Below are positions 49,601-64,000 of a DNA stretch of 64,000 nucleotides, piece by piece. The notes beneath the pieces are model-generated. The model was not told the DNA's origin. It did no database searches and saw only the letters and a list, made by a program, of their open reading frames with translations. Origin of the DNA: Candidatus Marinacidobacterium sp. (GTDB lineage: Bacteria; Acidobacteriota; Vicinamibacteria; Marinacidobacterales; Marinacidobacteraceae); NCBI GenBank assembly GCA_965220965.1, contig OZ244852.1:824621-888620 (forward strand), in the 5' to 3' direction. Numbering within the stretch: position 1 is the first letter of the stretch; the number at the start of each line of letters is the position of its first letter. Both the position numbers and the translations under genes were made by a program.

Positions 49601-50161
49601 CTCGCCGAACGCAAGGAGCCGGGACGCGAGAGCCGGGAGGGGCAGGAGGGCTCGTCCGGGCAGCAGGGTGAGGCGCAATCCGGAGAGGGCCAATCTGGCG
49701 AGGGGCAGTTCGGGGAAGGACAGGCCGGCGAGGGGCAGCCCGGGGAAGCGGCCTCCCGGCAGGCCGATGGGCGCGGTGGAGGCGGCGGCCCCGGCGGATC
49801 CCGCAACGAAGTCCGCCAGCTCCGGAGCGAACTGGACCGCCGGGTCCGCGACGCCGAGGCGCTCCGGCGCGAGATGACCGGCATCGGCGCCTCCGGGGAG
49901 TTCGGCGCCGAGCGGCTGGATCAGGTCGCCGCCGCGCTCAGGGGACTGAACCCGGAGCGGCTCATCGGCGACCCCCGGGGCATGGAGATCCTCGAGGCCG
50001 AAGTCCTCGACACCCTGCGCGAGCTCGAGTTCGACCTGAGGCGGGCGCTCACCGGCGGCGAGGTCGCCGATGTCCTCACCGGGGACGCCGGCCGCGCCCC
50101 CGAGGCCTACCGCGAGATGGTCGAGGAGTACTTCCGCAACCTGAGCCGCAACCCGGGGTAG
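46616..50161 (+). CDS. Very large membrane-anchored coiled-coil protein (DUF4175-like) with low-complexity Gly and GEGQx repeats
   Basis: 1181 aa. Two N-terminal TM helices after RRVRSRWRTRRLLLGGAALAVAG, then VALYVEEHDPTLREAVISGVEL (as in DUF4175 proteins of MoxR/Bat clusters). Long Arg/Glu-rich helical C-half. The family name is from memory only. Confidence 0.6.
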   Translation: METLGLDPTPRSPFEPTPGERYEELIRVIRRVRSRWRTRRLLLGGAALAVAGVVLVGGSSAILEAARYAPWAVRGLAALTWTLLAIAVWRFVARPLRSRVSDRRVALYVEEHDPTLREAVISGVELGKELDHKGGARPGFSPELTRLVVEEAIRRCEEMDAGRNIETGGLRRAAGALATAVGVAFVASILAPSDLWRGVSLLVAPWGDIDDRNPYRVLVEPGDAAIARGSDMWISATLEGFDTERVDLHLQAADGEGWEVLGMTPDPEAGGFRHLLLGVPEATDYFVDADGVRSPTFRIEVEDAPYVARIGVRYEYPAHTGLTPREVEEGGDLVAVGGTRVTLHVESTIPASSGVLRLDPGEEELPLVPVAPDEEAAPAGSRPAMTAELVLRESGAYRISLAGPDGALRTASRDYRIEVLEDLPPIVRFLRPGRDLTSSPVEEVFTEVAAEDDFALDRVEIRLSVNGGEESGFVLASGGARSEVQSGHTIFLEEHDLVPGDLVSYYALARDGAGAESSTDMYFVAVRPFDRTYRQADAMPGGGGGAGGGEGLDGTLTLRQRQIVVATFKVLRDRERMTDAAVSETVATLGLAQGRLREQVGTLNRRLQNRGIGLSPEFGEIVQHLDAGLIEMTAAEESLVGGDPEAALPREQKALTHLQRADAVFRDVQVAFNQGGGGGGGGGAPPQAEDLADLFELEMDKLRNQYETVEQSQRASSDNEVDEILERLAELARRQEQENERLRRGMQAPPGAGGGNGQDQLAAETEDMARRLERLARERSRPDLAAVSRRLREAASEMRAANSRNPGEGLESGMSAASSLRGARRDLDRGRRDRLARDVESAEEEAKRLRSAQDRIRSAVQDLEGERTRQAVDAISEQKEELVERVQDLERRLDEVSRDWSGDEPEAARAVGAAADGIRDRKLKEKIHYSRGVAAQRSTDYADQFEEMIGRDLEALEEDLASARRAVEGSDRAEQDSVLERAESLVRGLEAMRNRLAERKEPGRESREGQEGSSGQQGEAQSGEGQSGEGQFGEGQAGEGQPGEAASRQADGRGGGGGPGGSRNEVRQLRSELDRRVRDAEALRREMTGIGASGEFGAERLDQVAAALRGLNPERLIGDPRGMEILEAEVLDTLRELEFDLRRALTGGEVADVLTGDAGRAPEAYREMVEEYFRNLSRNPG
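49667..49741 (+). repeat. In-frame 15-nt tandem repeat encoding (G-E-G/A-Q-x)x5
   Basis: ggtgaggcgcaatcc ggagagggccaatct ggcgaggggcagttc ggggaaggacaggcc ggcgaggggcagccc = GEAQS GEGQS GEGQF GEGQA GEGQP inside the DUF4175-like CDS. Confidence 0.8.
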
Positions 50162-50440
50162 CCGGCCTGCCCGCGGTTACAGTGCGAGTGCGGAACAAGA
50201 CGGCGACATCGAGCGGCGAGGCGGCGGGAGTCCCACAGAGCCTCCCTTGGTGACGGGTTGGAGGGCGGAGCGCGACGCCATCCAGTCGAACCAGGCTCAG
50301 CTTGCGGTGACTCGGCTCCGTTGTGAGCGACCATCGGACCTCCAGACACTGCGACGGCGTTCCTTTTGTGGTCGTGGGATGCGGGCCGCCTTGGGACACG
50401 ATCTTGACCTCGATGAGTCAGACGAAATGAACTCTCAGCC

Positions 50441-52132
50441 GTGATTCGCGGAGTGTGGAGCGACTTCGGTCGGTGGAAGGATGGTTGGGATGAAATCCAG
50501 ACAGTGGGCGGCGGTGGACAGGGGAACGGTTACCGTGCGCGTCGCCAGTCAGATGGCCGGGAGGCCTTCGTCAAGGTGATCAAGTCCAAGCGCGACGCCG
50601 AGCGTCGGAGACGCTTCTTTCGCGAGGCGACAGCCTATGACACGGTTCGCAGCAGTGGCGTTCCGCGACTGATCGAGAGCAACGCCCATCTCCACGAAGC
50701 CGCAGAGATCGAGCCGTATATCGCGACAGAGTTCATCGAGGGGCCAACGTTGAGAATCTGGCGGGACGGACGGCATGAGGTTGAACTCGCCACCGCCCTA
50801 AGATTGGTCCGGTCTCTCCTCGCGGCGATCGGCGACTGTCACCACGGCGGTGTCGTTCACCGCGACATCAAGCCAGACAACATCATCCTGAGAGGTGGGA
50901 ATCCGTCCCAGCCTGTGCTTCTGGATTTTGGCCTGAGCTTCAAGGTGACGCAGACCAGTGAGGCCGTGACCGAAGACGGGCAGGAAATCGGCAATCGTTT
51001 TCTGCGCTTGCATGAGCTCTCCGCCGGTAGTCAACTTAAGCAGGATCCCCGGTCGGACTTGTCGTTTGCTGGTGGAATCCTGTTCTACTCCCTGACGGGC
51101 AGGAATCCCGACATCCCAGAGGATGCGGAGGGTCGTCTCCCTCACCAACGGAGGGATGTGCGTTCGCAGCTTCGACACATCGCCGGTGAGCGGTTGGAGC
51201 GGTTGCTGTCCATATTCGACAGCGCCTTCGCACCAAGAATCCACGACCGGTTCGTGAACGTCGAGGCAATGGTTGCAAGTCTGGAGAACCTCACGGAATC
51301 GCGGCGTGTTGTGGTGGGCACGTTGGATCATGATCGAGACGCCATCCGTGAGGCGTTGAACACTGCGTCGGCACAGCGGTCATCAGAGAGTCTTGACAGA
51401 CTCACGCACGCTCTCGAAGAGCTGCATCGAGTTGACGATGAAGCAGCGACGTGGTTGGACTGTCCTCTAACTCTGACACGAGGCGGACGGCACGTAGATG
51501 CCGACTTGGGAAGAAACACTGTGTCCTGGCGTAAGCGAGGAATGACCGACGATGTGTTACGAGTACAGCAGGAGGTCCGGGAGGTAGGCGGTGAACTCGT
51601 CATCAAGCTGTCGGGCGAAGCGGTCTGGCGGACGGCGGTGAACGCACCGACGTATGGAGAGTGCTTTGCCGAGAGAATTCGGAGATGGCTGGTCGGGAGA
51701 CTCCGCGAGGCTATCGCGAATCCGGAGGCGCTGCCGCCCGAGGCCAGCTATTTCCAGGAAGAGCCGCCGCTCGGGTCGCTAACGGAAGCGCAGGAGCGAG
51801 CGCGCCGAGAGGACCGCCACGTTCTGGCGTTCGTGTATGACCCGGCGCAGAAGGAGCGCGGCGAACGCGGCAAATTGGAGTGGTGTCTGAGCAACTTCCT
51901 TGAGAACCGCAGGACGCGCGAAACGCTCCGCGCAGCGTTTGTTCTAGCGCTCGTGCCACTGTCTCAAGTAAGTGCGGTCACAGACGAGCTCAGTGGCGAG
52001 TCGATGGAGACTTCACGCTGGGTCGTCTTTGATGCGGACCTCGCACCCAAGCGGCACGAAGTCATCTATGCGAACCCGCAGATGGCGGAGAGTCTCGCCG
52101 GTGAGCTGTCCGACGAGTTCGGTCGCCGATAG
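50441..52132 (+). CDS. Ser/Thr protein kinase domain fused to an uncharacterised ~290-aa C-terminal region
   Basis: GTG start. G-loop GGGGQGNGY, EAFVKVIK (VAIK-like Lys), HRDIKPDNIIL (catalytic loop), DFGLSF (DFG). The C-terminal half has no motif I recognise. The gene is visibly lower in GC than its flanks. Confidence 0.8.
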   Translation: MIRGVWSDFGRWKDGWDEIQTVGGGGQGNGYRARRQSDGREAFVKVIKSKRDAERRRRFFREATAYDTVRSSGVPRLIESNAHLHEAAEIEPYIATEFIEGPTLRIWRDGRHEVELATALRLVRSLLAAIGDCHHGGVVHRDIKPDNIILRGGNPSQPVLLDFGLSFKVTQTSEAVTEDGQEIGNRFLRLHELSAGSQLKQDPRSDLSFAGGILFYSLTGRNPDIPEDAEGRLPHQRRDVRSQLRHIAGERLERLLSIFDSAFAPRIHDRFVNVEAMVASLENLTESRRVVVGTLDHDRDAIREALNTASAQRSSESLDRLTHALEELHRVDDEAATWLDCPLTLTRGGRHVDADLGRNTVSWRKRGMTDDVLRVQQEVREVGGELVIKLSGEAVWRTAVNAPTYGECFAERIRRWLVGRLREAIANPEALPPEASYFQEEPPLGSLTEAQERARREDRHVLAFVYDPAQKERGERGKLEWCLSNFLENRRTRETLRAAFVLALVPLSQVSAVTDELSGESMETSRWVVFDADLAPKRHEVIYANPQMAESLAGELSDEFGRR

Positions 52133-52349
52133 GTCGGTACCAACGGGCCTGGTCCGGCGTCTGCTCGCGATGCCGTCCGCTGCTGTTGGGGTACAGGCCT
52201 CGCTCGAACGATCCCCGACGCCGGGCGGCCCGTGCGATGCGGGGGCTCCATCTCCGTCCGACGCGCAGGCGCAAAGCGCCGCGGATGAGGCACCCGGTCA
52301 CGGGATGTCCCAGACTCGCCTCGGCGGGCTGGCGGCGTCCCGGCCCCCG

Positions 52350-52841
52350 TCAGGACGACGTGTGGTCGTGGGCGATCCGGAGGCCCTCGGGGGTCTTCTC
52401 GAAGAGGAGCGTGAAGAGGCCGGTCGGGGCGTCGGCCTCGCGCTCCAGGTTGTAGCGCCCGAACACGAACACGAACTCCGGCGACAGCACCCGGATGTCG
52501 AGGTCGGAGAAGTGGAGCTGGCCCATGGCGGCCCGGTCGGGGTAGTTGGTCTGGTAGCGCTCGAGCAGATCCGCGGTTCCCATCCGCACCGTGTTGCCCG
52601 AGACGAACCGCATCCGGGGTGAGTCGAGGTAGTCGCTGACGAAGGTCGGCAGGTCCCCCTCGTTCCAGGCCCGGGTCTGGCGTTCGAGCACCTCGCGGAC
52701 TTCGGCGGCGAGGGCGTCGCGCTCCTCGGTCGTGAGCGCGACCCGGGTCGGGGCGGCGGAGGTGGTCTCCGGCGGGGCCGCGCCCGGCCCGGCGCAGGCC
52801 AGCGAGAGCAGCAGGAGCGAGGCGGGAAGAACGTGTCGCAT
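52350..52841 (-). CDS. SnoaL-like / DUF4440 (NTF2-fold) lipoprotein
   Basis: Lipobox LLLLSLACAG. ERQTRAWNEGDLPTFVSDY ... typical NTF2-like pattern. 163 aa. Confidence 0.65.
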   Translation of the reverse strand: MRHVLPASLLLLSLACAGPGAAPPETTSAAPTRVALTTEERDALAAEVREVLERQTRAWNEGDLPTFVSDYLDSPRMRFVSGNTVRMGTADLLERYQTNYPDRAAMGQLHFSDLDIRVLSPEFVFVFGRYNLEREADAPTGLFTLLFEKTPEGLRIAHDHTSS

Positions 52842-58481: not shown

Positions 58482-61400
58482 CTATCCGCGGGATAGCGCC
58501 TGTTCGATCTCATTCAGGGCGAATTTGCGGTTCAGGTGTGGGTGCAGCCACTGATTCCGATAACTCCTGAGGCACCCATAGCAGCTCGCGTCGCAACCGC
58601 AGTCGCCGCGCACACGCGTTCGCGCAAGTTCCAGCACGAGGCGGAAACTCTCCCTGTTGGTGAGTTGGCCTACGAGTCCAGCGCCGCCAGGAACATCGTC
58701 GTAGAGAACCACTCCGTCCACGGTAAGGGTGACGTTCAGGTCGCGTTCGGGGACGGCAACGGCATCGGCAGCTCCATGGAGAAGCGCGTACCCGAGCGAA
58801 TACCGAACCCACTTCTGGCGCCCCGGCAGCTCAACCTTGACCACATCTGTGACAAGCTCGTGACCCAACGCGTAGCTGGAGAAGGTACCTCGGCAGGGAC
58901 GCCCGTCCGCTGTCTTGTGGCCGCGCGCCCGTGGGTTCGCGTCGTGTAGTCCGCAGTCCTCGCACAGCAAGAAGTTGCGCTGACCCTGACCCTCACAGAG
59001 AACCACTAACCTGCCTGGCAGAGCCTCTGCGACATCGAGCCCGAAGAGTCTCTTCTTGTGGGCCTTGCGCGCCCCAGCGGAATACCCCTGGAAGAACGGC
59101 TTCGTCGTATACTGACGGCGCGGTCGGCGCACCGGAGGGCGTGGGTCGGTCTGGAGGTCGGTAGTAAAGCCCCAACGTGGGACGAGATAGCGACCTGAGT
59201 ACTGTGCACCTTCCTCCTTCTCCGCGTCATTTGAGGATTCGAAGGCGCCCTCCTCGTTCCAGAAGTACCAGCGGACGGTGGGAGCCTGCCCCTCGACCCT
59301 CCGAATACCCACAGACTTCCACTCCAGCTTGTCGGCGACTACGCTGCTCCCAGGCGCGTATTCGGCAAGCGCGAGTGAGAGATCACGGTCGAGCTCTATG
59401 TTCTGGCCATTCTTGGTCGCTCCCGTTTGCAGCTCGACCACATCCACCGGAAATCCGTATTTTGGGATGATGGCGTGTCGCGCCAGAAACGAAATCGCCA
59501 TCTCCCGCTCCATCGCGTTCAATCGGTCCTCCAACCGATAGCGCCTCCTTCGTTCAGTGCGAGTGGCATTCAGATCCGCCAGGATCCGTTCGATCTGAAG
59601 ATACTCGGCGCACCGATCGGCGACGGCGCGGGCGAGTCTGCTCTCGCTCCCGGTAAGCCGTCGAACCCATTTCTGTCCATCGACCCCGACGCTCTCCCGC
59701 AGCGTCGCCGGAACGACGTCGTGCAGGACTCGCGGCAGCGCGTCGTCGTTGCGGCAGAACTCGCCGAAAGCATCACACACATCGGGGTGTCGCCAGTCCT
59801 CGCCAATGAAATCCTTGACTCGTCCGGCGCGAATACGATGCGCCGGCTGCCGGAAGAAGTGTGATAGGGCGACCGCGGTCATGTGCCTTTGGACGATCTG
59901 AGGATTTGTCAGGCGAAGGATCGGCGGTCGGACCCGACCAGAGATCATCTCCTGCTGATGTCGGAAGTAGTGGAGGTCATGGGAGTTGCGGCGACAGTAG
60001 GTGACGGCAAGACCTGCCTTCCCCCGCCGGCCGGCGCGGCCGACTCGTTGTGTGTAGTTGAACGGTTCGGGTGGCACGTTACGAAGAAACGTCAGGCGAA
60101 GATCACCGAGGTCGACACCGACTTCGAACGTAGTGGACGAACTGAGCAGGTGCACCCGATCCCGCTGAAAATCGCGCTGGACGCTGCGCGCTTCCTCCGG
60201 AGTCAACTGCGCTGTGTGTTCGGCCGTTCTGAAGTCTGCTGGAAGGTCCGATGCGAGGTAGAGGCGTCGGTAGTGGTTGTCCTCGTGCGTGCTCTTCACC
60301 CGACCGAGTCGTCCCGTGCAGCGAGGACGGGGACAGAGGCCGCGAAGGGCTATGGCAGTGACCCGGTCGCACCTACGACACCGCCAGAGGTCGGATGACG
60401 AGGCCGGACGGACACGGAGCCACTCGGCGCGCAGCCGGAAGCCGTTAGTCCTGCGATCGATGGACAGGAGAGCGGCGCTGGACGAGCGTCGCGACTGAGC
60501 GACGAGGTGATCCCAGACACGAACCATCACATCTTGGGCGGCGAACACGGGGTCCGTCTCACCATTGACTAGTTTGGGAAGATAGTCGCGAACAAGGCCG
60601 CCCTGCGGTGAGCCCCACTGGCGCAGATGACGGCGTCCGTGCGGACGATCTTGGCTGAAGGCGAGTTGGGGCCTCTCTGGCTTTATGACGGACCACGTGG
60701 GCAGATCCGGATCGGTGGAGGGCAGCTCCACCGCGTCGTTTCTGAGGAACTCGGCGAGCAGCAATTGCAGGAGCGCACTGGCCTCCGCCGGGTTCAACCG
60801 CCAGGGAGTCTCCTGGAACACTGGCGGGAGATTCATGCCCGGAGGCAGTGCGACATGCCAGCGGCAGAGGCCGACCCCCGCCAGCGACAGCCGCGTGTCA
60901 TCGGTCACGGCTTCACGAAGCACTGCCGCATAGGCATCTCTGTAGCGCTGTGCTCCAGTCTCCGACGGTGCGTGAACCCCCAGCTCCGACCGGACTCTCT
61001 CGAGTCTCTGCGCGAGATCGGCCACGGACAACTCGCAGTGACTCGCGCCACGCGGTGAAGCCTTCTGTCGAAGGGCGCGGAGCAACAGGTTGCGCGTGAG
61101 CAGAGTCCGGTAGGAGTCCTCCGCATACCAAGCAAAGAAAGCTGCGTCCTGTCGGCTATCCGCGAAGGCAAGGATCTTCTTCTCATCCTCGGGAAGAAAC
61201 CGGTGCATGGCCGTAGCCAGAACGGCGTTGGGGGCGTCGGCGCCGTGGACGATCGCCTGAACGGGATCGCCAACGCCACCTCGGCTGTAGCTACAGACCG
61301 CGCACCTCTTCAGTTGATCCCGGTACTCCGGTTGCTGTCGGTTCTCACTCCGTTCAACACGGATCGCCGCTCCACAGCGGCACGTCAGCTCGTCGCTCAG

Positions 61401-62738
61401 CGCACCGCAGATACGGCAGAGCAGAAGGGAACCCTCCTCGGCGGGCAGGTAGAACTCGACCCCGAACTCCTCGCGCGACGGATCCCGGCAGGCTTCCAGG
61501 AGGAACCCTCCGGTACGGCGGCCAACGTAGTAGTGCTGGCCACACTCGCGGCACAGCGCTATCTCGATATAGGCCGACTTGCCAGCCTCATCCCCGACAT
61601 GACCGCGGTTCAGCGTGACCCGGTCCTGCCCATGATGGTGATGCAGGAAAGCGCCTTCAAGCGCCCTTGCAAACACGTGGTAGCGACGTACGTGCGCACT
61701 CGTCCTGGCCCGTGTAGTGTCCTCCTGACCGAAGATCACGCACTCGGGAGCGAAGGGCTCACCGAACAGGGCACTCGCAAATCGAGCCACGGATGCCCGA
61801 GCATCGGCATCGTGTGTCGACGCGATGGTGGCGCTCGTGGCGACGCATCGAAATGACCCCGACCGGCCGCCTCGCCGCAGTCGATTCGTGAGACGGCGCA
61901 GCAGCATCGCCATCTCGATCCCCCTTGCACCGCGATACATGTGCGCCTCGTCGAGGACCAGAAACCGCCAGTGAGCGGCCCGGCCGGCATCGAACAAAGG
62001 GCTGTCATCCGGCCGGAGGAGCAGATGCTCGAGCATCGAGTAGTTGGTAAACAGAAGGTGCGGCGGCCGCGCCCGCATATCCTCGCGGAATACTGTTTCG
62101 CCGGGGAGCGCGCTCTCAGCGCGCGCGCGACCGTGCCGGCGTCGGTCTCTGATGTTCTCCGGTGTCTGCCCGATGTACTGTCCAAAGGAGAATCGGAAGT
62201 CGGAGCGGTCCGCAGCGAGGTTGCCGCAGAGCGCGCCGATCCGCTCGCGCTGGTCGTTGACCAGGGCGTTCATGGGATAGAGAACGAGGGCGCGGACGCC
62301 GGGGTCGCCCAGCGTGCCGGCCAGGTGTTCTCCGTAGAGGGAGAACAGAATGGGATAAAGGAAGCACTCGGTCTTCCCGCTGGCTGTGCCGCTCGCCACG
62401 GCGATGTTGGACTGTGCGAACGCGCTCTGTCGAATGGCCTCCTCCTGATGTGCATAGAGCGCGCCGGAGTGCAGAGCAGGTAAGAGCGCGCCTGCCCGGC
62501 CAGGAAACGCCGCCTCGGCGAGAGCGGGAGCCTCGACCCCGAGCCGAAAATACCGGCCGTATTCCGGAACAGGTTCGGTGACCAGTGTGCCCTCGGCTTC
62601 GAGCGCGGTGCGGAAGGACTCGCGTAGTTGGGGATCTCGGAAATGGAAAGATGTTGTGAGGTACCTGAGGTAGCTCGAACGCAGACGTCGGACCCACCCG
62701 GCGATCTCCGCGTCGGAATGGGGTTGGGTGACGCTCAT
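58482..62738 (-). CDS. Large SF2 DEAD/DEAH-box helicase with C-terminal DUF1998/MZB zinc-binding domain (YprA-MrfA / DrmAB / DruE-like)
   Basis: ATG at 62738. Motif I VASGTASGKT (62370-62399), motif II DEAH (61941-61952), TSATI, motif VI QRVGRAGRRG. C-terminal GDCGCDASCYGCLRSYRNQ (about 58567-58611) is the DUF1998 4-Cys cluster. Extra CxxC pairs lie between the RecA lobes. The first 126 codons of the ORF-track entry overlap the upstream gene out of frame. Confidence 0.85.
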   Translation of the reverse strand: MSVTQPHSDAEIAGWVRRLRSSYLRYLTTSFHFRDPQLRESFRTALEAEGTLVTEPVPEYGRYFRLGVEAPALAEAAFPGRAGALLPALHSGALYAHQEEAIRQSAFAQSNIAVASGTASGKTECFLYPILFSLYGEHLAGTLGDPGVRALVLYPMNALVNDQRERIGALCGNLAADRSDFRFSFGQYIGQTPENIRDRRRHGRARAESALPGETVFREDMRARPPHLLFTNYSMLEHLLLRPDDSPLFDAGRAAHWRFLVLDEAHMYRGARGIEMAMLLRRLTNRLRRGGRSGSFRCVATSATIASTHDADARASVARFASALFGEPFAPECVIFGQEDTTRARTSAHVRRYHVFARALEGAFLHHHHGQDRVTLNRGHVGDEAGKSAYIEIALCRECGQHYYVGRRTGGFLLEACRDPSREEFGVEFYLPAEEGSLLLCRICGALSDELTCRCGAAIRVERSENRQQPEYRDQLKRCAVCSYSRGGVGDPVQAIVHGADAPNAVLATAMHRFLPEDEKKILAFADSRQDAAFFAWYAEDSYRTLLTRNLLLRALRQKASPRGASHCELSVADLAQRLERVRSELGVHAPSETGAQRYRDAYAAVLREAVTDDTRLSLAGVGLCRWHVALPPGMNLPPVFQETPWRLNPAEASALLQLLLAEFLRNDAVELPSTDPDLPTWSVIKPERPQLAFSQDRPHGRRHLRQWGSPQGGLVRDYLPKLVNGETDPVFAAQDVMVRVWDHLVAQSRRSSSAALLSIDRRTNGFRLRAEWLRVRPASSSDLWRCRRCDRVTAIALRGLCPRPRCTGRLGRVKSTHEDNHYRRLYLASDLPADFRTAEHTAQLTPEEARSVQRDFQRDRVHLLSSSTTFEVGVDLGDLRLTFLRNVPPEPFNYTQRVGRAGRRGKAGLAVTYCRRNSHDLHYFRHQQEMISGRVRPPILRLTNPQIVQRHMTAVALSHFFRQPAHRIRAGRVKDFIGEDWRHPDVCDAFGEFCRNDDALPRVLHDVVPATLRESVGVDGQKWVRRLTGSESRLARAVADRCAEYLQIERILADLNATRTERRRRYRLEDRLNAMEREMAISFLARHAIIPKYGFPVDVVELQTGATKNGQNIELDRDLSLALAEYAPGSSVVADKLEWKSVGIRRVEGQAPTVRWYFWNEEGAFESSNDAEKEEGAQYSGRYLVPRWGFTTDLQTDPRPPVRRPRRQYTTKPFFQGYSAGARKAHKKRLFGLDVAEALPGRLVVLCEGQGQRNFLLCEDCGLHDANPRARGHKTADGRPCRGTFSSYALGHELVTDVVKVELPGRQKWVRYSLGYALLHGAADAVAVPERDLNVTLTVDGVVLYDDVPGGAGLVGQLTNRESFRLVLELARTRVRGDCGCDASCYGCLRSYRNQWLHPHLNRKFALNEIEQALSRG

Positions 62739-62787
62739 CGATCCGTGGCGCGGAGCATCCGATCGCAGACCCGGGTCCAGGCGTGCC

Positions 62788-64000
62788 TCATCGGGACGTG
62801 AGGGCCCGAAGGGCCGCGACGGCGGCGTTGACGACGTGGGCGCGGGACCCGATGGAACGAACGCGAATGCTTCGGATGCCTGCGGTCTCCAAGAGCGCCC
62901 GTAGACGGCCACGGGCGTGAACGCCCGAGTCGGCGCTCGCGGGCCGCAGCAGAAGGCGCGAGGAGCCATAGGCGCCAACCGTGGCGCGCGGAATGGTGTT
63001 GTGGGAGATCGGGACGACGAACAGGGCGCGTCGAGCCCGATGCTCGGCCCGGGCACATGCTCTTCGAGGTGTGCTCTCGCATGCGCGTCCGACGCCGAGT
63101 CGGCCGTTGCGATCACCCACGGCTACGAGCGCCACGAATCGTCGGTGTCGAGGCGCTACGGCCCGCCGTGAGAGCGGTCGGAGCGTGAGAAGGCGAGGGG
63201 TCAGCGCCGGTGGAGATTGGGAGGGGGACGGGTGGGAAGGAAGTTCGAGGAGGAGTGCCGGCAGAGTGTGCGAGCCAGCCCGTAGCCTGAGTTCCCCGGA
63301 CGCTGGCTCGGATTGGACAGAGAGGAGGTCGGCGAAAGAGCCCAGCGGAATCGAGACGGCCGTCTTGTGCGGAAACTGGGCAGCAAGGCCACTGTCGGCC
63401 TCGTGGCGGTAGCGTCCGGGCTGACCGTCAGCGAAGGCCGCCTCGATCGTCCGCTCCGTGGGTGGCGCCAGAACCTCCAGTGCGGCGTGTCGCCGATAGG
63501 TTCGGCGAAGCGGTCGTCGCTCCCAGCAGGAGTCACCCGCCATCCGCCACCAGAGGCGCGGCAGATCCAGGACAATCGGGAGGCTGTCGTCGCCGTCGCG
63601 CAGTTCAAGGCGCACCCGATCGGTCTTGGGGGAGTACGGCACCCGCGCCTCTCGAGTGCGAACGGCCACATCGCGCGTGCCGGTGTTGAGCTGCAGCGAC
63701 CGACCATGGCTGTCTTCGATCGTGATGTAGTCCTCGTCGCGGTCGTCTGGCAAGAGGAGTCGGAGACCCTCGAATGGCAGTCCGTTCACCAGAATCCTCT
63801 TGAGGCCTGGCCAGTAGCGGAACGTGGTCGTGTCGGCGAGATGAGTGTGGCCGCTCTGATACGTGCGAAGAAAGAACTCGCCGCGCCTGTTCCCAATGCG
63901 CACGGGTGTTGGCTGCTCTGTGAGTTCGAAGTTCTTGCCCTTCCACGGTTCGTCGGCTGGCCCCGCGTGGCGCCCGGCGGCGCGGGGGTGCTCCTCTCCG
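62788..64000 (-). CDS. Unknown protein (5' end beyond window) with C-terminal ribosomal-protein-S5-homology domain
   Basis: The frame stays open to nt 64000 (no stop upstream of the GTG at 63903). The last ~135 aa (62791..63195) align end-to-end with bacterial S5: RRFVALVAVGDRNGRLGVGRA.., NTIPRATVGAYGSSRLLLRPASADSGVHARGRLRALLETAGIRSI, IGSRAHVVNAAVAALRAL. The N-terminal >=260 aa are unrecognised. Confidence 0.75.
   Translation of the reverse strand, partial: GEEHPRAAGRHAGPADEPWKGKNFELTEQPTPVRIGNRRGEFFLRTYQSGHTHLADTTTFRYWPGLKRILVNGLPFEGLRLLLPDDRDEDYITIEDSHGRSLQLNTGTRDVAVRTREARVPYSPKTDRVRLELRDGDDSLPIVLDLPRLWWRMAGDSCWERRPLRRTYRRHAALEVLAPPTERTIEAAFADGQPGRYRHEADSGLAAQFPHKTAVSIPLGSFADLLSVQSEPASGELRLRAGSHTLPALLLELPSHPSPSQSPPALTPRLLTLRPLSRRAVAPRHRRFVALVAVGDRNGRLGVGRACESTPRRACARAEHRARRALFVVPISHNTIPRATVGAYGSSRLLLRPASADSGVHARGRLRALLETAGIRSIRVRSIGSRAHVVNAAVAALRALTSR

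Follow-up and report, generated by a model that had tools for sequence, protein, structure and literature searches.

A candidate Druantia-III-like two-gene locus in which DruE is paired with a scaffold protein bearing exchangeable C-terminal heads

Why would a long, non-ribosomal protein end in a copy of ribosomal protein S5, and why would its gene lie directly upstream of a helicase gene? This question is raised by one end of a 64,000-nucleotide stretch of DNA from Candidatus Marinacidobacterium sp. (assembly GCA_965220965.1, contig OZ244852.1, positions 824,621 to 888,620 of the forward strand; the whole stretch is called the window here). An earlier note, made from the letters of the window, had described an S5 homology domain at the end of a longer minus-strand open reading frame (ORF), next to the gene of a defence-type helicase. 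From its sequence features, we interpret the locus as a two-gene system resembling Druantia III, whose partner family is new and modular to an unusual degree. The helicase is DruE, and the protein encoded directly upstream of it, here called the scaffold, carries a C-terminal domain (the head) that is S5 in the window and a different module in many of its relatives.

The S5-like tail is the head of an 849-residue scaffold protein

On the minus strand, a frame that begins at 63999 stays free of stops over 403 codons, ends at the TGA at 62788-62790 and is still open at the window edge. This frame is the 3' part of the scaffold gene (62788..64000, codons 447-849 plus the stop). S5 homology occupies the last 135 residues of the ORF (62788..>64000). 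The N-terminal S5 domain, resembling a double-stranded-RNA-binding domain (dsRBD), lies at 63010..63195 on the minus strand and was matched by PF00333 (Ribosomal_S5; residues 269-330 of the 403-residue fragment, E = 1.8e-9, 37.9 bits against a gathering cut-off of 27.1). The C-terminal S5 domain, at 62797..62976 on the same strand, was matched by PF03719 (Ribosomal_S5_C; residues 342-401, E = 2.7e-11, 43.2 bits against a gathering cut-off of 21.5). Both domains are spanned by TIGR01021 (rpsE_bact), of which model positions 7-141 of 156 are covered (E = 2.3e-24, 86 bits), so that the full-length homology proposed in the earlier note is borne out. Its by-eye estimate of one third identity was also close, with 36-40% measured to the best-matching genuine S5 proteins and 32% to a hand-entered sequence of Escherichia coli S5. 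A tblastn search of the plasmid records of PLSDB matched annotated rpsE genes at 40-44% identity over 90 residues. In the mechanical ORF list the truncated scaffold frame appears as a closed ORF of 371 residues, starting from an internal GTG at 63903 (62788-63903).

The window head contains 28 Arg and no Lys, has a net charge of +23 and has lost the conserved GKA loop motif of S5. It is not a stand-alone protein of ~160-250 residues from an rplR-rpsE-rpmD-rplO-secY cluster but the C-terminus of an 849-residue protein, and its neighbours are a helix-turn-helix (HTH) gene, a TonB-dependent receptor, DruE and a metalloprotease, with no ribosomal-operon genes among them. As the earlier note had held, this is not the housekeeping rpsE. 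Judged by its domains and its divergence, the window head is truly homologous to S5 and represents an old copy that has diverged strongly and become hyper-basic.

The missing N-terminus and the upstream genes were recovered, by extension past position 64000 as the same note had suggested, from an identical 50-kb metagenome contig (L001), which was found by exact-protein look-up of the window helicase. L001 shows no mismatch to the window over 14,001 nucleotides (nt) and reaches 8.7 kb beyond position 64000. The complete scaffold protein, encoded at L001:7402-9951, has 849 residues and is protein P0004 of the exhaustive HMMER search described below; the window fragment is identical to its last 403 residues. 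The fusion of S5 to a long non-ribosomal sequence thus holds for the full-length protein. A word-index protein search with the 403-residue fragment returned three ordinary S5 proteins only and missed the identical full-length protein.

The 849 residues comprise a short hydrophobic or amphipathic N-terminal helix, a stretch of ~225 residues rich in Pro, Ser, Asp and Glu, a core of ~450 residues and the S5 head. In family alignments the core carries the invariant motifs PRxIGGRR, GRFFLRxY, FRYWP and LPRxWWR. The last three lie in the C-terminal half of this conserved, beta-rich core (63250..63999, minus strand), which aligns to ~28 family proteins. The core had no match in Pfam, NCBIfam or PADLOC models, and its profile found nothing significant among PDB sequences. 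A structure model of the window fragment was unusable (mean predicted local distance difference test score, pLDDT, of 39). An AlphaFold2 (AF2) model of the relative P0157 is all-beta after the linker, with a mean pLDDT of 52, and is trustworthy only for the beta-rich character of the core and for the eL13-like tail; this low-confidence model gave only weak Foldseek matches to multi-immunoglobulin (Ig) folds (E ~1e-3, template modelling (TM) score ~0.1).

Some variation between members was seen outside the head. N-terminal helix and core are joined by a linker of ~110-320 residues, which is predicted to be disordered and is usually net acidic (P0004 residues 26-250; P0157, P0008, P0012). The P0008 linker contains 46 Asp+Glu against 17 Lys+Arg and that of P0140 is near neutral; the heads, by contrast, are mostly very basic. 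A tandem duplicate of the whole scaffold core is present in some members (P0009 of 1173 residues, L034 and P0132), and the C-terminus of L034 is a zinc ribbon in place of a ribosomal-type head.

The downstream helicase is a compact DruE

The druE-like gene (58482..62738, minus strand, 1418 residues) starts with an ATG at 62738 and is separated from the scaffold gene by a spacer of exactly 49 nt (62739..62787), co-oriented and at the distance previously noted. Its translation shows GTASGKT and DEAH motifs. The first DEAD/DEAH helicase core domain lies at 61815..62453 (PF00270, residues 96-308, E = 1.6e-17), followed by a Helicase_C domain at 60021..60239 (PF00271, residues 834-906, E = 2.6e-10) and a zinc-binding MZB (DUF1998) domain at 58569..58793 (PF09369, residues 1316-1390, E = 4.8e-10), all on the minus strand. 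PADLOC models assigned the protein to DruE (DruE1, E = 7e-144; DruE3, E = 4e-135), and it matched the solved DruE structures 9tu7 (E = 3e-65) and 9wae (E = 1e-49). The match to the solved YprA structure 6znp was limited to the N-terminal helicase core (residues 90-310, E = 1e-18). By these matches the window helicase is a compact YprA-family DruE. The earlier description as a defence-type DUF1998 helicase therefore stood as far as its domains were concerned, but the system need not be left unplaced: the helicase is specifically a DruE, which makes the locus Druantia-III-like.

Two other readings of the gene were set aside. A longer helicase ORF of 1544 residues from a GTG at 63116 is a high-GC artefact, adding 126 codons over the S5 region in another frame. 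The MrfA/MrfB (YprA/YprB) repair pair combines a helicase of ~750 residues with the MrfB exonuclease; here the helicase has 1418 residues and the locus contains no exonuclease gene. A promoter and terminator scan downstream of druE found nothing.

Scaffold and DruE genes form a conserved pair in a foreign island

In all of the first four genomic contexts examined, a DruE of ~1400 residues was encoded directly downstream of the scaffold gene. Linkage was then counted over species representatives at the 72 loci that have a complete scaffold C-terminus and at least ~800 nt of downstream sequence. A same-strand DruE homologue lies directly downstream in ~68 of these 72 loci, and the linkage in related genomes for which the earlier note had asked is thereby established. 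These homologues are 45-62% identical to the window DruE and start between -25 and +200 nt from the scaffold stop, often overlapping it. The arrangement is shared by scaffolds with S17, omega, KH and S6 heads and was also seen on metagenome contigs of the Joint Genome Institute (JGI). A functional linkage between the scaffold and DruE is supported by this pairing.

Exceptions to the pairing are L016, L032, L057 and L078. L032 resembles a chance match (an ORF of 149 residues), the ORF of L016 is shortened and L078 keeps DruE fragments only. At another locus (L003:12135-15335), DruE is split into two called genes of 613 and 403 residues. The split gene of L003 and the fragments of L078 are possibly decaying copies or assembly frameshifts.

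The GC content across 58.5-64 kb of the window is 0.61-0.68 against 0.71 for the whole window, and the GC content at third codon positions (GC3) is 0.72-0.74 in the scaffold and druE genes against ~0.9 in flanking host genes; the low-GC patch mentioned in the earlier note is confirmed. The edge of this low-GC island coincides with the end of the helicase gene. Because its GC is below that of the window and its GC3 below that of the host genes, the scaffold-druE pair is placed in a foreign, horizontally acquired island. On L001 the island is flanked by host genes, a TonB-dependent receptor upstream and a DUF5117/DUF4953 metalloprotease downstream. Among the relatives, neighbouring genes include an integrase with RadC, a cytosine methylase with Vsr, PIN, and HigB and Phd toxin-antitoxin genes. 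An origin on a phage or a plasmid was set aside: a scan of IMG/VR with the core DNA pattern gave no matches and the tblastn search of PLSDB gave rpsE hits only.

One scaffold carries at least six kinds of head

The family was collected in two ways. An exhaustive HMMER search covered 1.84 billion representative proteins, and ~28 of the best 150 matches listed share the core, the remainder being ordinary S5 proteins; a word-index protein search with the core profile recovered six members only. Genomes were scanned with a DNA pattern of two motifs, built by hand on the core, which returned 86 stretches in 185,579 species-representative genomes, 83 of them true members, and 14 further members in JGI metagenomes.

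In the HMMER set, S5 tails were found in P0004, P0005, P0006, P0011, P0012, P0020 and P0082, NusA-like KH tails in P0007, P0008 and P0010, Ribosomal_L13e tails in P0025, P0085, P0095, P0112, P0113, P0118 and P0149, and a Ribosomal_S6 tail in P0140 (E = 6.6e-25). Heads were tallied over the 78 loci whose C-terminal tail is complete and could be scored (74 from the genome scan plus L001-L004). By far the commonest is the eL13-like head (58 of 78), usually preceded by an extra Ig-like domain. S5 heads are present at five loci, an S17 head at one (L044, Pfam E = 3e-28) and an RNA polymerase omega/Rpb6 head at one (L077, E = 1e-8, above the gathering score). The remaining loci fall into several unassigned groups, among which are a possible winged helix, a zinc ribbon and a basic coiled coil. 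Apart from the named heads, five types labelled unkA to unkE received no significant assignment in Pfam or NCBIfam. When compared with eL13 of solved 80S and archaeal ribosomes, the eL13-like head gave a Foldseek probability of 1.0 and 30-39% identity, using a model of moderate confidence. Most heads are strongly basic.

By NCBIfam scores, some of the heads are complete proteins and not merely common folds. The S5 head of L019 reached 212 bits against the equivalog cut-off of 164, the level needed to name a protein S5; the S17 head reached 101.5 bits (cut-off 74) and the S6 head 75 bits (cut-off 42.9). The KH head spans both NusA KH domains (97 bits), and the omega head scored 48 bits, below its cut-off of 58. 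By these assignments, at least six interchangeable C-terminal heads (S5, S6, S17, NusA KH, omega and eL13-like) are borne by one scaffold, and S5 is not the defining feature of the family.

The fused heads that score above an equivalog cut-off are those of L019, L041 and L093/L097 (S5), L044 (S17) and P0140/L109 (S6). Such S5, S17 and S6 heads could be mis-annotated as rpsE, rpsQ and rpsF, and may be counted as duplicated single-copy markers when the quality of genome bins is checked. According to the record titles, nearly all 83 members come from metagenome-assembled genomes with sponge-symbiont names (L005-L090), for example Poribacteria, Latescibacterota, SAR202/Dehalococcoidia, Candidatus Spongiihabitans, Candidatus Poriferihabitaceae, Binatia, Acidobacteriota, Nitrospinales, and Alpha- and Gammaproteobacteria. 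With the habitat read from these names and from the projects concerned, the system seems to be spread over more than 12 phyla within one habitat.

Heads have been exchanged between related scaffolds

When 87 cores were clustered by identity, all S5-only and KH types, including the window protein, were interleaved in one clade, where P0005 (S5) is closest to P0008 (KH) at 57% core identity. In a larger clade eL13-like heads predominate, and S6, S17, omega, S5 and unknown heads are scattered among them; this clade includes P0011, in which an S5 head is placed after an Ig domain. The cores of L010 and L025 are 82% identical and bear different heads, an unknown basic head and an eL13-like head, respectively; L026 and L083 share 73% core identity. 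Because such close scaffolds carry different heads, the core clustering indicates that heads have been exchanged recently and repeatedly, S5 having been captured at least twice.

The S5 heads differ in their histories. Those of L019, L041 and L093 share 85-86% identity among themselves and 68-69% with a real S5, whereas their scaffolds are only 42-51% identical, and head GC3 is higher than scaffold GC3. Either strong constraint on the head, or repeated recapture or gene conversion from the host rpsE, would account for this. The window head is as diverged as its scaffold (34% to other heads against 33-38% for the scaffold), and members of a third subgroup retain a recognisable S5 C-terminal domain only. 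S5 heads occur in at least ten further proteins of different lineages, all of them intact.

Relation to Druantia and other systems

Compact DruE helicases have been described for Druantia III-B (PMC12458937; bioRxiv 10.64898/2026.05.13.724758). DruE is reported to be a 3'-5' helicase that loads on exposed single-stranded DNA (ssDNA), and its partner DruH to contain Ig-like domains and to bind ssDNA through its C-terminal domain (bioRxiv 10.64898/2026.05.12.722862, 10.64898/2026.05.13.724758); in E. coli DruH, the C-terminal domain forms the ssDNA-binding site. The window locus resembles Druantia III in consisting of two genes, with a large partner that has no catalytic domain, co-oriented directly upstream of a YprA-family DruE with MZB/DUF1998; its helicase resembles that of type III-B in being compact and in having no detected PLD nuclease domain; and its partner may, going by low-confidence models, combine a beta-sandwich array with a distinct C-terminal domain. 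It differs from Druantia III in that the scaffold has no detectable similarity to DruH, possesses a long, acidic, disordered N-terminal region and ends in a swappable copy of a ribosomal protein, the NusA KH domains or omega, none of which is reported for DruH.

The PADLOC models of DruH and other partners gave no match at E <= 1 with seven family members; as a positive control, the canonical DruH of a Marinobacter plasmid matched DruH3 at E = 0. The notion that the scaffold is a distant DruH was rejected at the sequence level on this result and on an hhalign probability of 1.6% between the core profile and the Marinobacter DruH. The scaffold family occupies DruH's position and may share its general build, but on sequence it does not belong to DruH. 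Genes of Druantia types I and II (DruA-D; DruM/F/G) were not found next to DruE, which has a single partner without a PADLOC match, between host-gene flanks.

Likeness to other systems is partial. The window head shares with uS5 (rpsE) both S5 domains in normal order and at nearly full length, and the heads of L019, L041 and L093 would be named S5 by NCBI. Unlike uS5, the window head forms the C-terminal 135 of 849 residues, lies outside the spc operon in a foreign island, falls below the equivalog cut-off, lacks the GKA loop and contains 28 Arg and no Lys. Nearest in concept are the CoCoNuT type IV restriction systems, which are predicted to engage the translation apparatus through borrowed domains (eLife 2024, PMC11090510). 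They often adjoin Druantia III and use translation-related modules (SmpB-like OB folds, YTH-like and cold-shock domains), but they are built on a McrBC GTPase and nuclease core, and neither whole ribosomal protein fusions nor cassette-like head exchange has been described for them. Plant nucleotide-binding leucine-rich-repeat (NLR) receptors with integrated decoys are similar in concept only, combining a conserved immune scaffold with variable host-derived domains; there is no homology, the effector arm is another one and a bait function is putative here.

A search of full-text literature on Druantia and DruE together with S5, L13e, ribosomal, NusA, integrated decoy and sponge symbionts yielded no description of the family, in agreement with the earlier note, whose author knew of no system that pairs an S5 module with such a helicase. 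A different partner was seen on a Clostridium butyricum megaplasmid (L091:3723-6929), where a protein of 1069 residues is encoded directly upstream of a DruE of 1559 residues; it had neither a PADLOC DruH match nor similarity to the scaffold family. Compact DruE helicases apparently have further undescribed partner families.

Proposed function and alternative explanations

We consider it probable, with real room for doubt, that the locus is a two-gene anti-phage operon of Druantia-III type in which a compact DruE works with an undescribed head-swapping scaffold, the head being the recognition end for RNA, another nucleic acid or an RNA-protein assembly. What the sequences show directly are the domain identities, the architecture of the full-length protein, the conservation of the gene pair and the exchange of heads. 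An anti-phage role is suggested by the homology to DruE, the composition of the island, the patchy spread across phyla and the neighbouring genes. By analogy with DruH, recognition would fall to the head, and DruE would act as the motor for unwinding phage DNA. The heads would have been copied from the machinery of gene expression (S5, S6, S17, the eL13-like segment, the NusA KH domains and RNA polymerase omega). On infection, the head might bind RNA, other nucleic acid or an RNA-protein assembly such as a ribosome or a transcribing polymerase; the scaffold would relay this contact, positioning or licensing DruE; and DruE would then unwind and clear phage DNA. More speculatively, the basic head might stay shielded by the acidic linker as long as no competing ligand is present. 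The earlier note had proposed an RNA- or ribosome-directed sensor or decoy, an idea that is plausible and has been made more interesting by the other heads.

Binding of nucleic acid or of RNA-protein assemblies is favoured by the presence of classic RNA- and ssDNA-binding folds among the heads, namely the dsRBD-like fold of S5, the oligonucleotide-binding (OB) fold of S17, KH domains and the fold of S6, which resembles an RNA recognition motif (RRM), as well as by the basic, rRNA-binding eL13-like segment and the strongly basic charge of most heads. Mimicry or docking would instead be suggested by the whole-protein heads, by near-canonical S5 heads that are better conserved than their scaffolds, by omega and by the non-basic S6. 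Omega binds the beta' subunit of RNA polymerase. Several observations weigh against the function proposed here. No RNA binding is known for omega. With a neutral S6 head and an acidic omega head in the set, plain nucleic-acid binding does not cover all heads. At 86 bits, the window head scores far under the rpsE_bact equivalog cut-off of 164. eL13 is not known from bacteria, and docking at a homologous ribosomal site therefore cannot explain the commonest head. The scaffold shows no sequence relationship to DruH (hhalign probability 1.6%), and the reading of its core as an Ig array is weak given the poor models (mean pLDDT of 39 and 52). Finally, no nuclease domain was found in the scaffold or the helicase with Pfam and NCBIfam, so that the step by which phage DNA would be destroyed has no candidate domain.

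The heads could alternatively be bait. If they imitated host proteins that are bound or modified by phages (ribosomal proteins, NusA and omega), the attack of a phage effector on the bait might switch on DruE, much as integrated decoy domains serve plant NLR receptors. We regard this explanation as unlikely, although it accounts for several features: the S5, S17 and S6 heads are complete and exceed their NCBIfam equivalog cut-offs; the heads of L019, L041 and L093 are 85-86% identical against 42-51% for their scaffolds, with higher GC3, as would fit a need to resemble a host protein; omega and S6, taken alone, bind nucleic acid poorly; and cassette swapping is typical of sensor ends in an arms race. 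However, the commonest head resembles eL13, for which a bacterial host offers no protein to imitate, and the window head is a poor mimic (34% identical to other heads and 36-40% to real S5) that has drifted as far as its scaffold. The high identity between heads could also reflect recent capture, and this analysis identified no phage effector directed against S5, S6 or S17. A broader version, an immune receptor that guards the gene-expression machinery through interchangeable full-length copies of its subunits (S5, S6, S17, NusA KH, omega), used as baits or docking heads so that DruE would read out a phage takeover of the ribosome or RNA polymerase, is likewise a doubtful candidate.

A housekeeping role, in which the pair serves DNA repair or RNA processing and the head brings a YprA/MrfA-type helicase to stalled polymerases or ribosomes, appears less probable still. 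The repair helicase MrfA/YprA does belong to the helicase family (6znp, E = 1e-18), and the NusA and omega heads point to RNA polymerase just as the S5, S6 and S17 heads point to the 30S subunit. The helicase nevertheless matches DruE models far better than the solved YprA structure, an MrfB-type exonuclease partner is absent from the locus, and the genes lie in a low-GC island, with integrase, toxin-antitoxin and methylase neighbours. Nor would housekeeping readily fit a patchy spread over more than 12 phyla with 45-62% DruE identity and only 83 members in 185,579 species representatives. That the S5 segment is a functionless, decaying fragment of rpsE or an assembly chimera is so improbable that it hardly needs to be entertained: the strong divergence of the window head, its lost GKA loop and its score of 86 bits against 164 would fit decay, but the frame is intact and continuous with the scaffold, the same protein occurs on independently assembled contigs, both domains pass Pfam thresholds and at least ten further S5-headed proteins are intact. 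On the intact frame, the Pfam-passing domains and the intact relatives, a decaying rpsE pseudogene was ruled out.

The finding bears on how Druantia senses infection, since the DruH proteins of known systems have no recognisable domains. At this locus the partner position is filled by a scaffold with a readable end, a copy of a ribosomal protein, NusA or omega that has been exchanged like a cassette between close relatives, which points to a connection between DNA-directed defence and the machineries of transcription and translation. Should the heads prove to be baits or docking modules, bacterial immunity would gain a new principle; if the system is a guarding receptor, it would be the first prokaryotic counterpart of the integrated decoys of plant NLRs and a new sensing logic for Druantia.

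Other features near the locus

On L001, the opposite strand encodes a HigA-like HTH_31 protein of 103 residues (L001:6703-7014), divergent from the scaffold gene and 387 nt upstream of it. No toxin gene adjoins this HTH gene, whose product could regulate the operon. Between host genes at 50160-52350 of the window lies a second low-GC patch (0.58-0.63). It contains small called genes without a Pfam match (196 and 71 residues on L001) and a long mechanical ORF (50441-52132), and may be the remnant of another inserted element.

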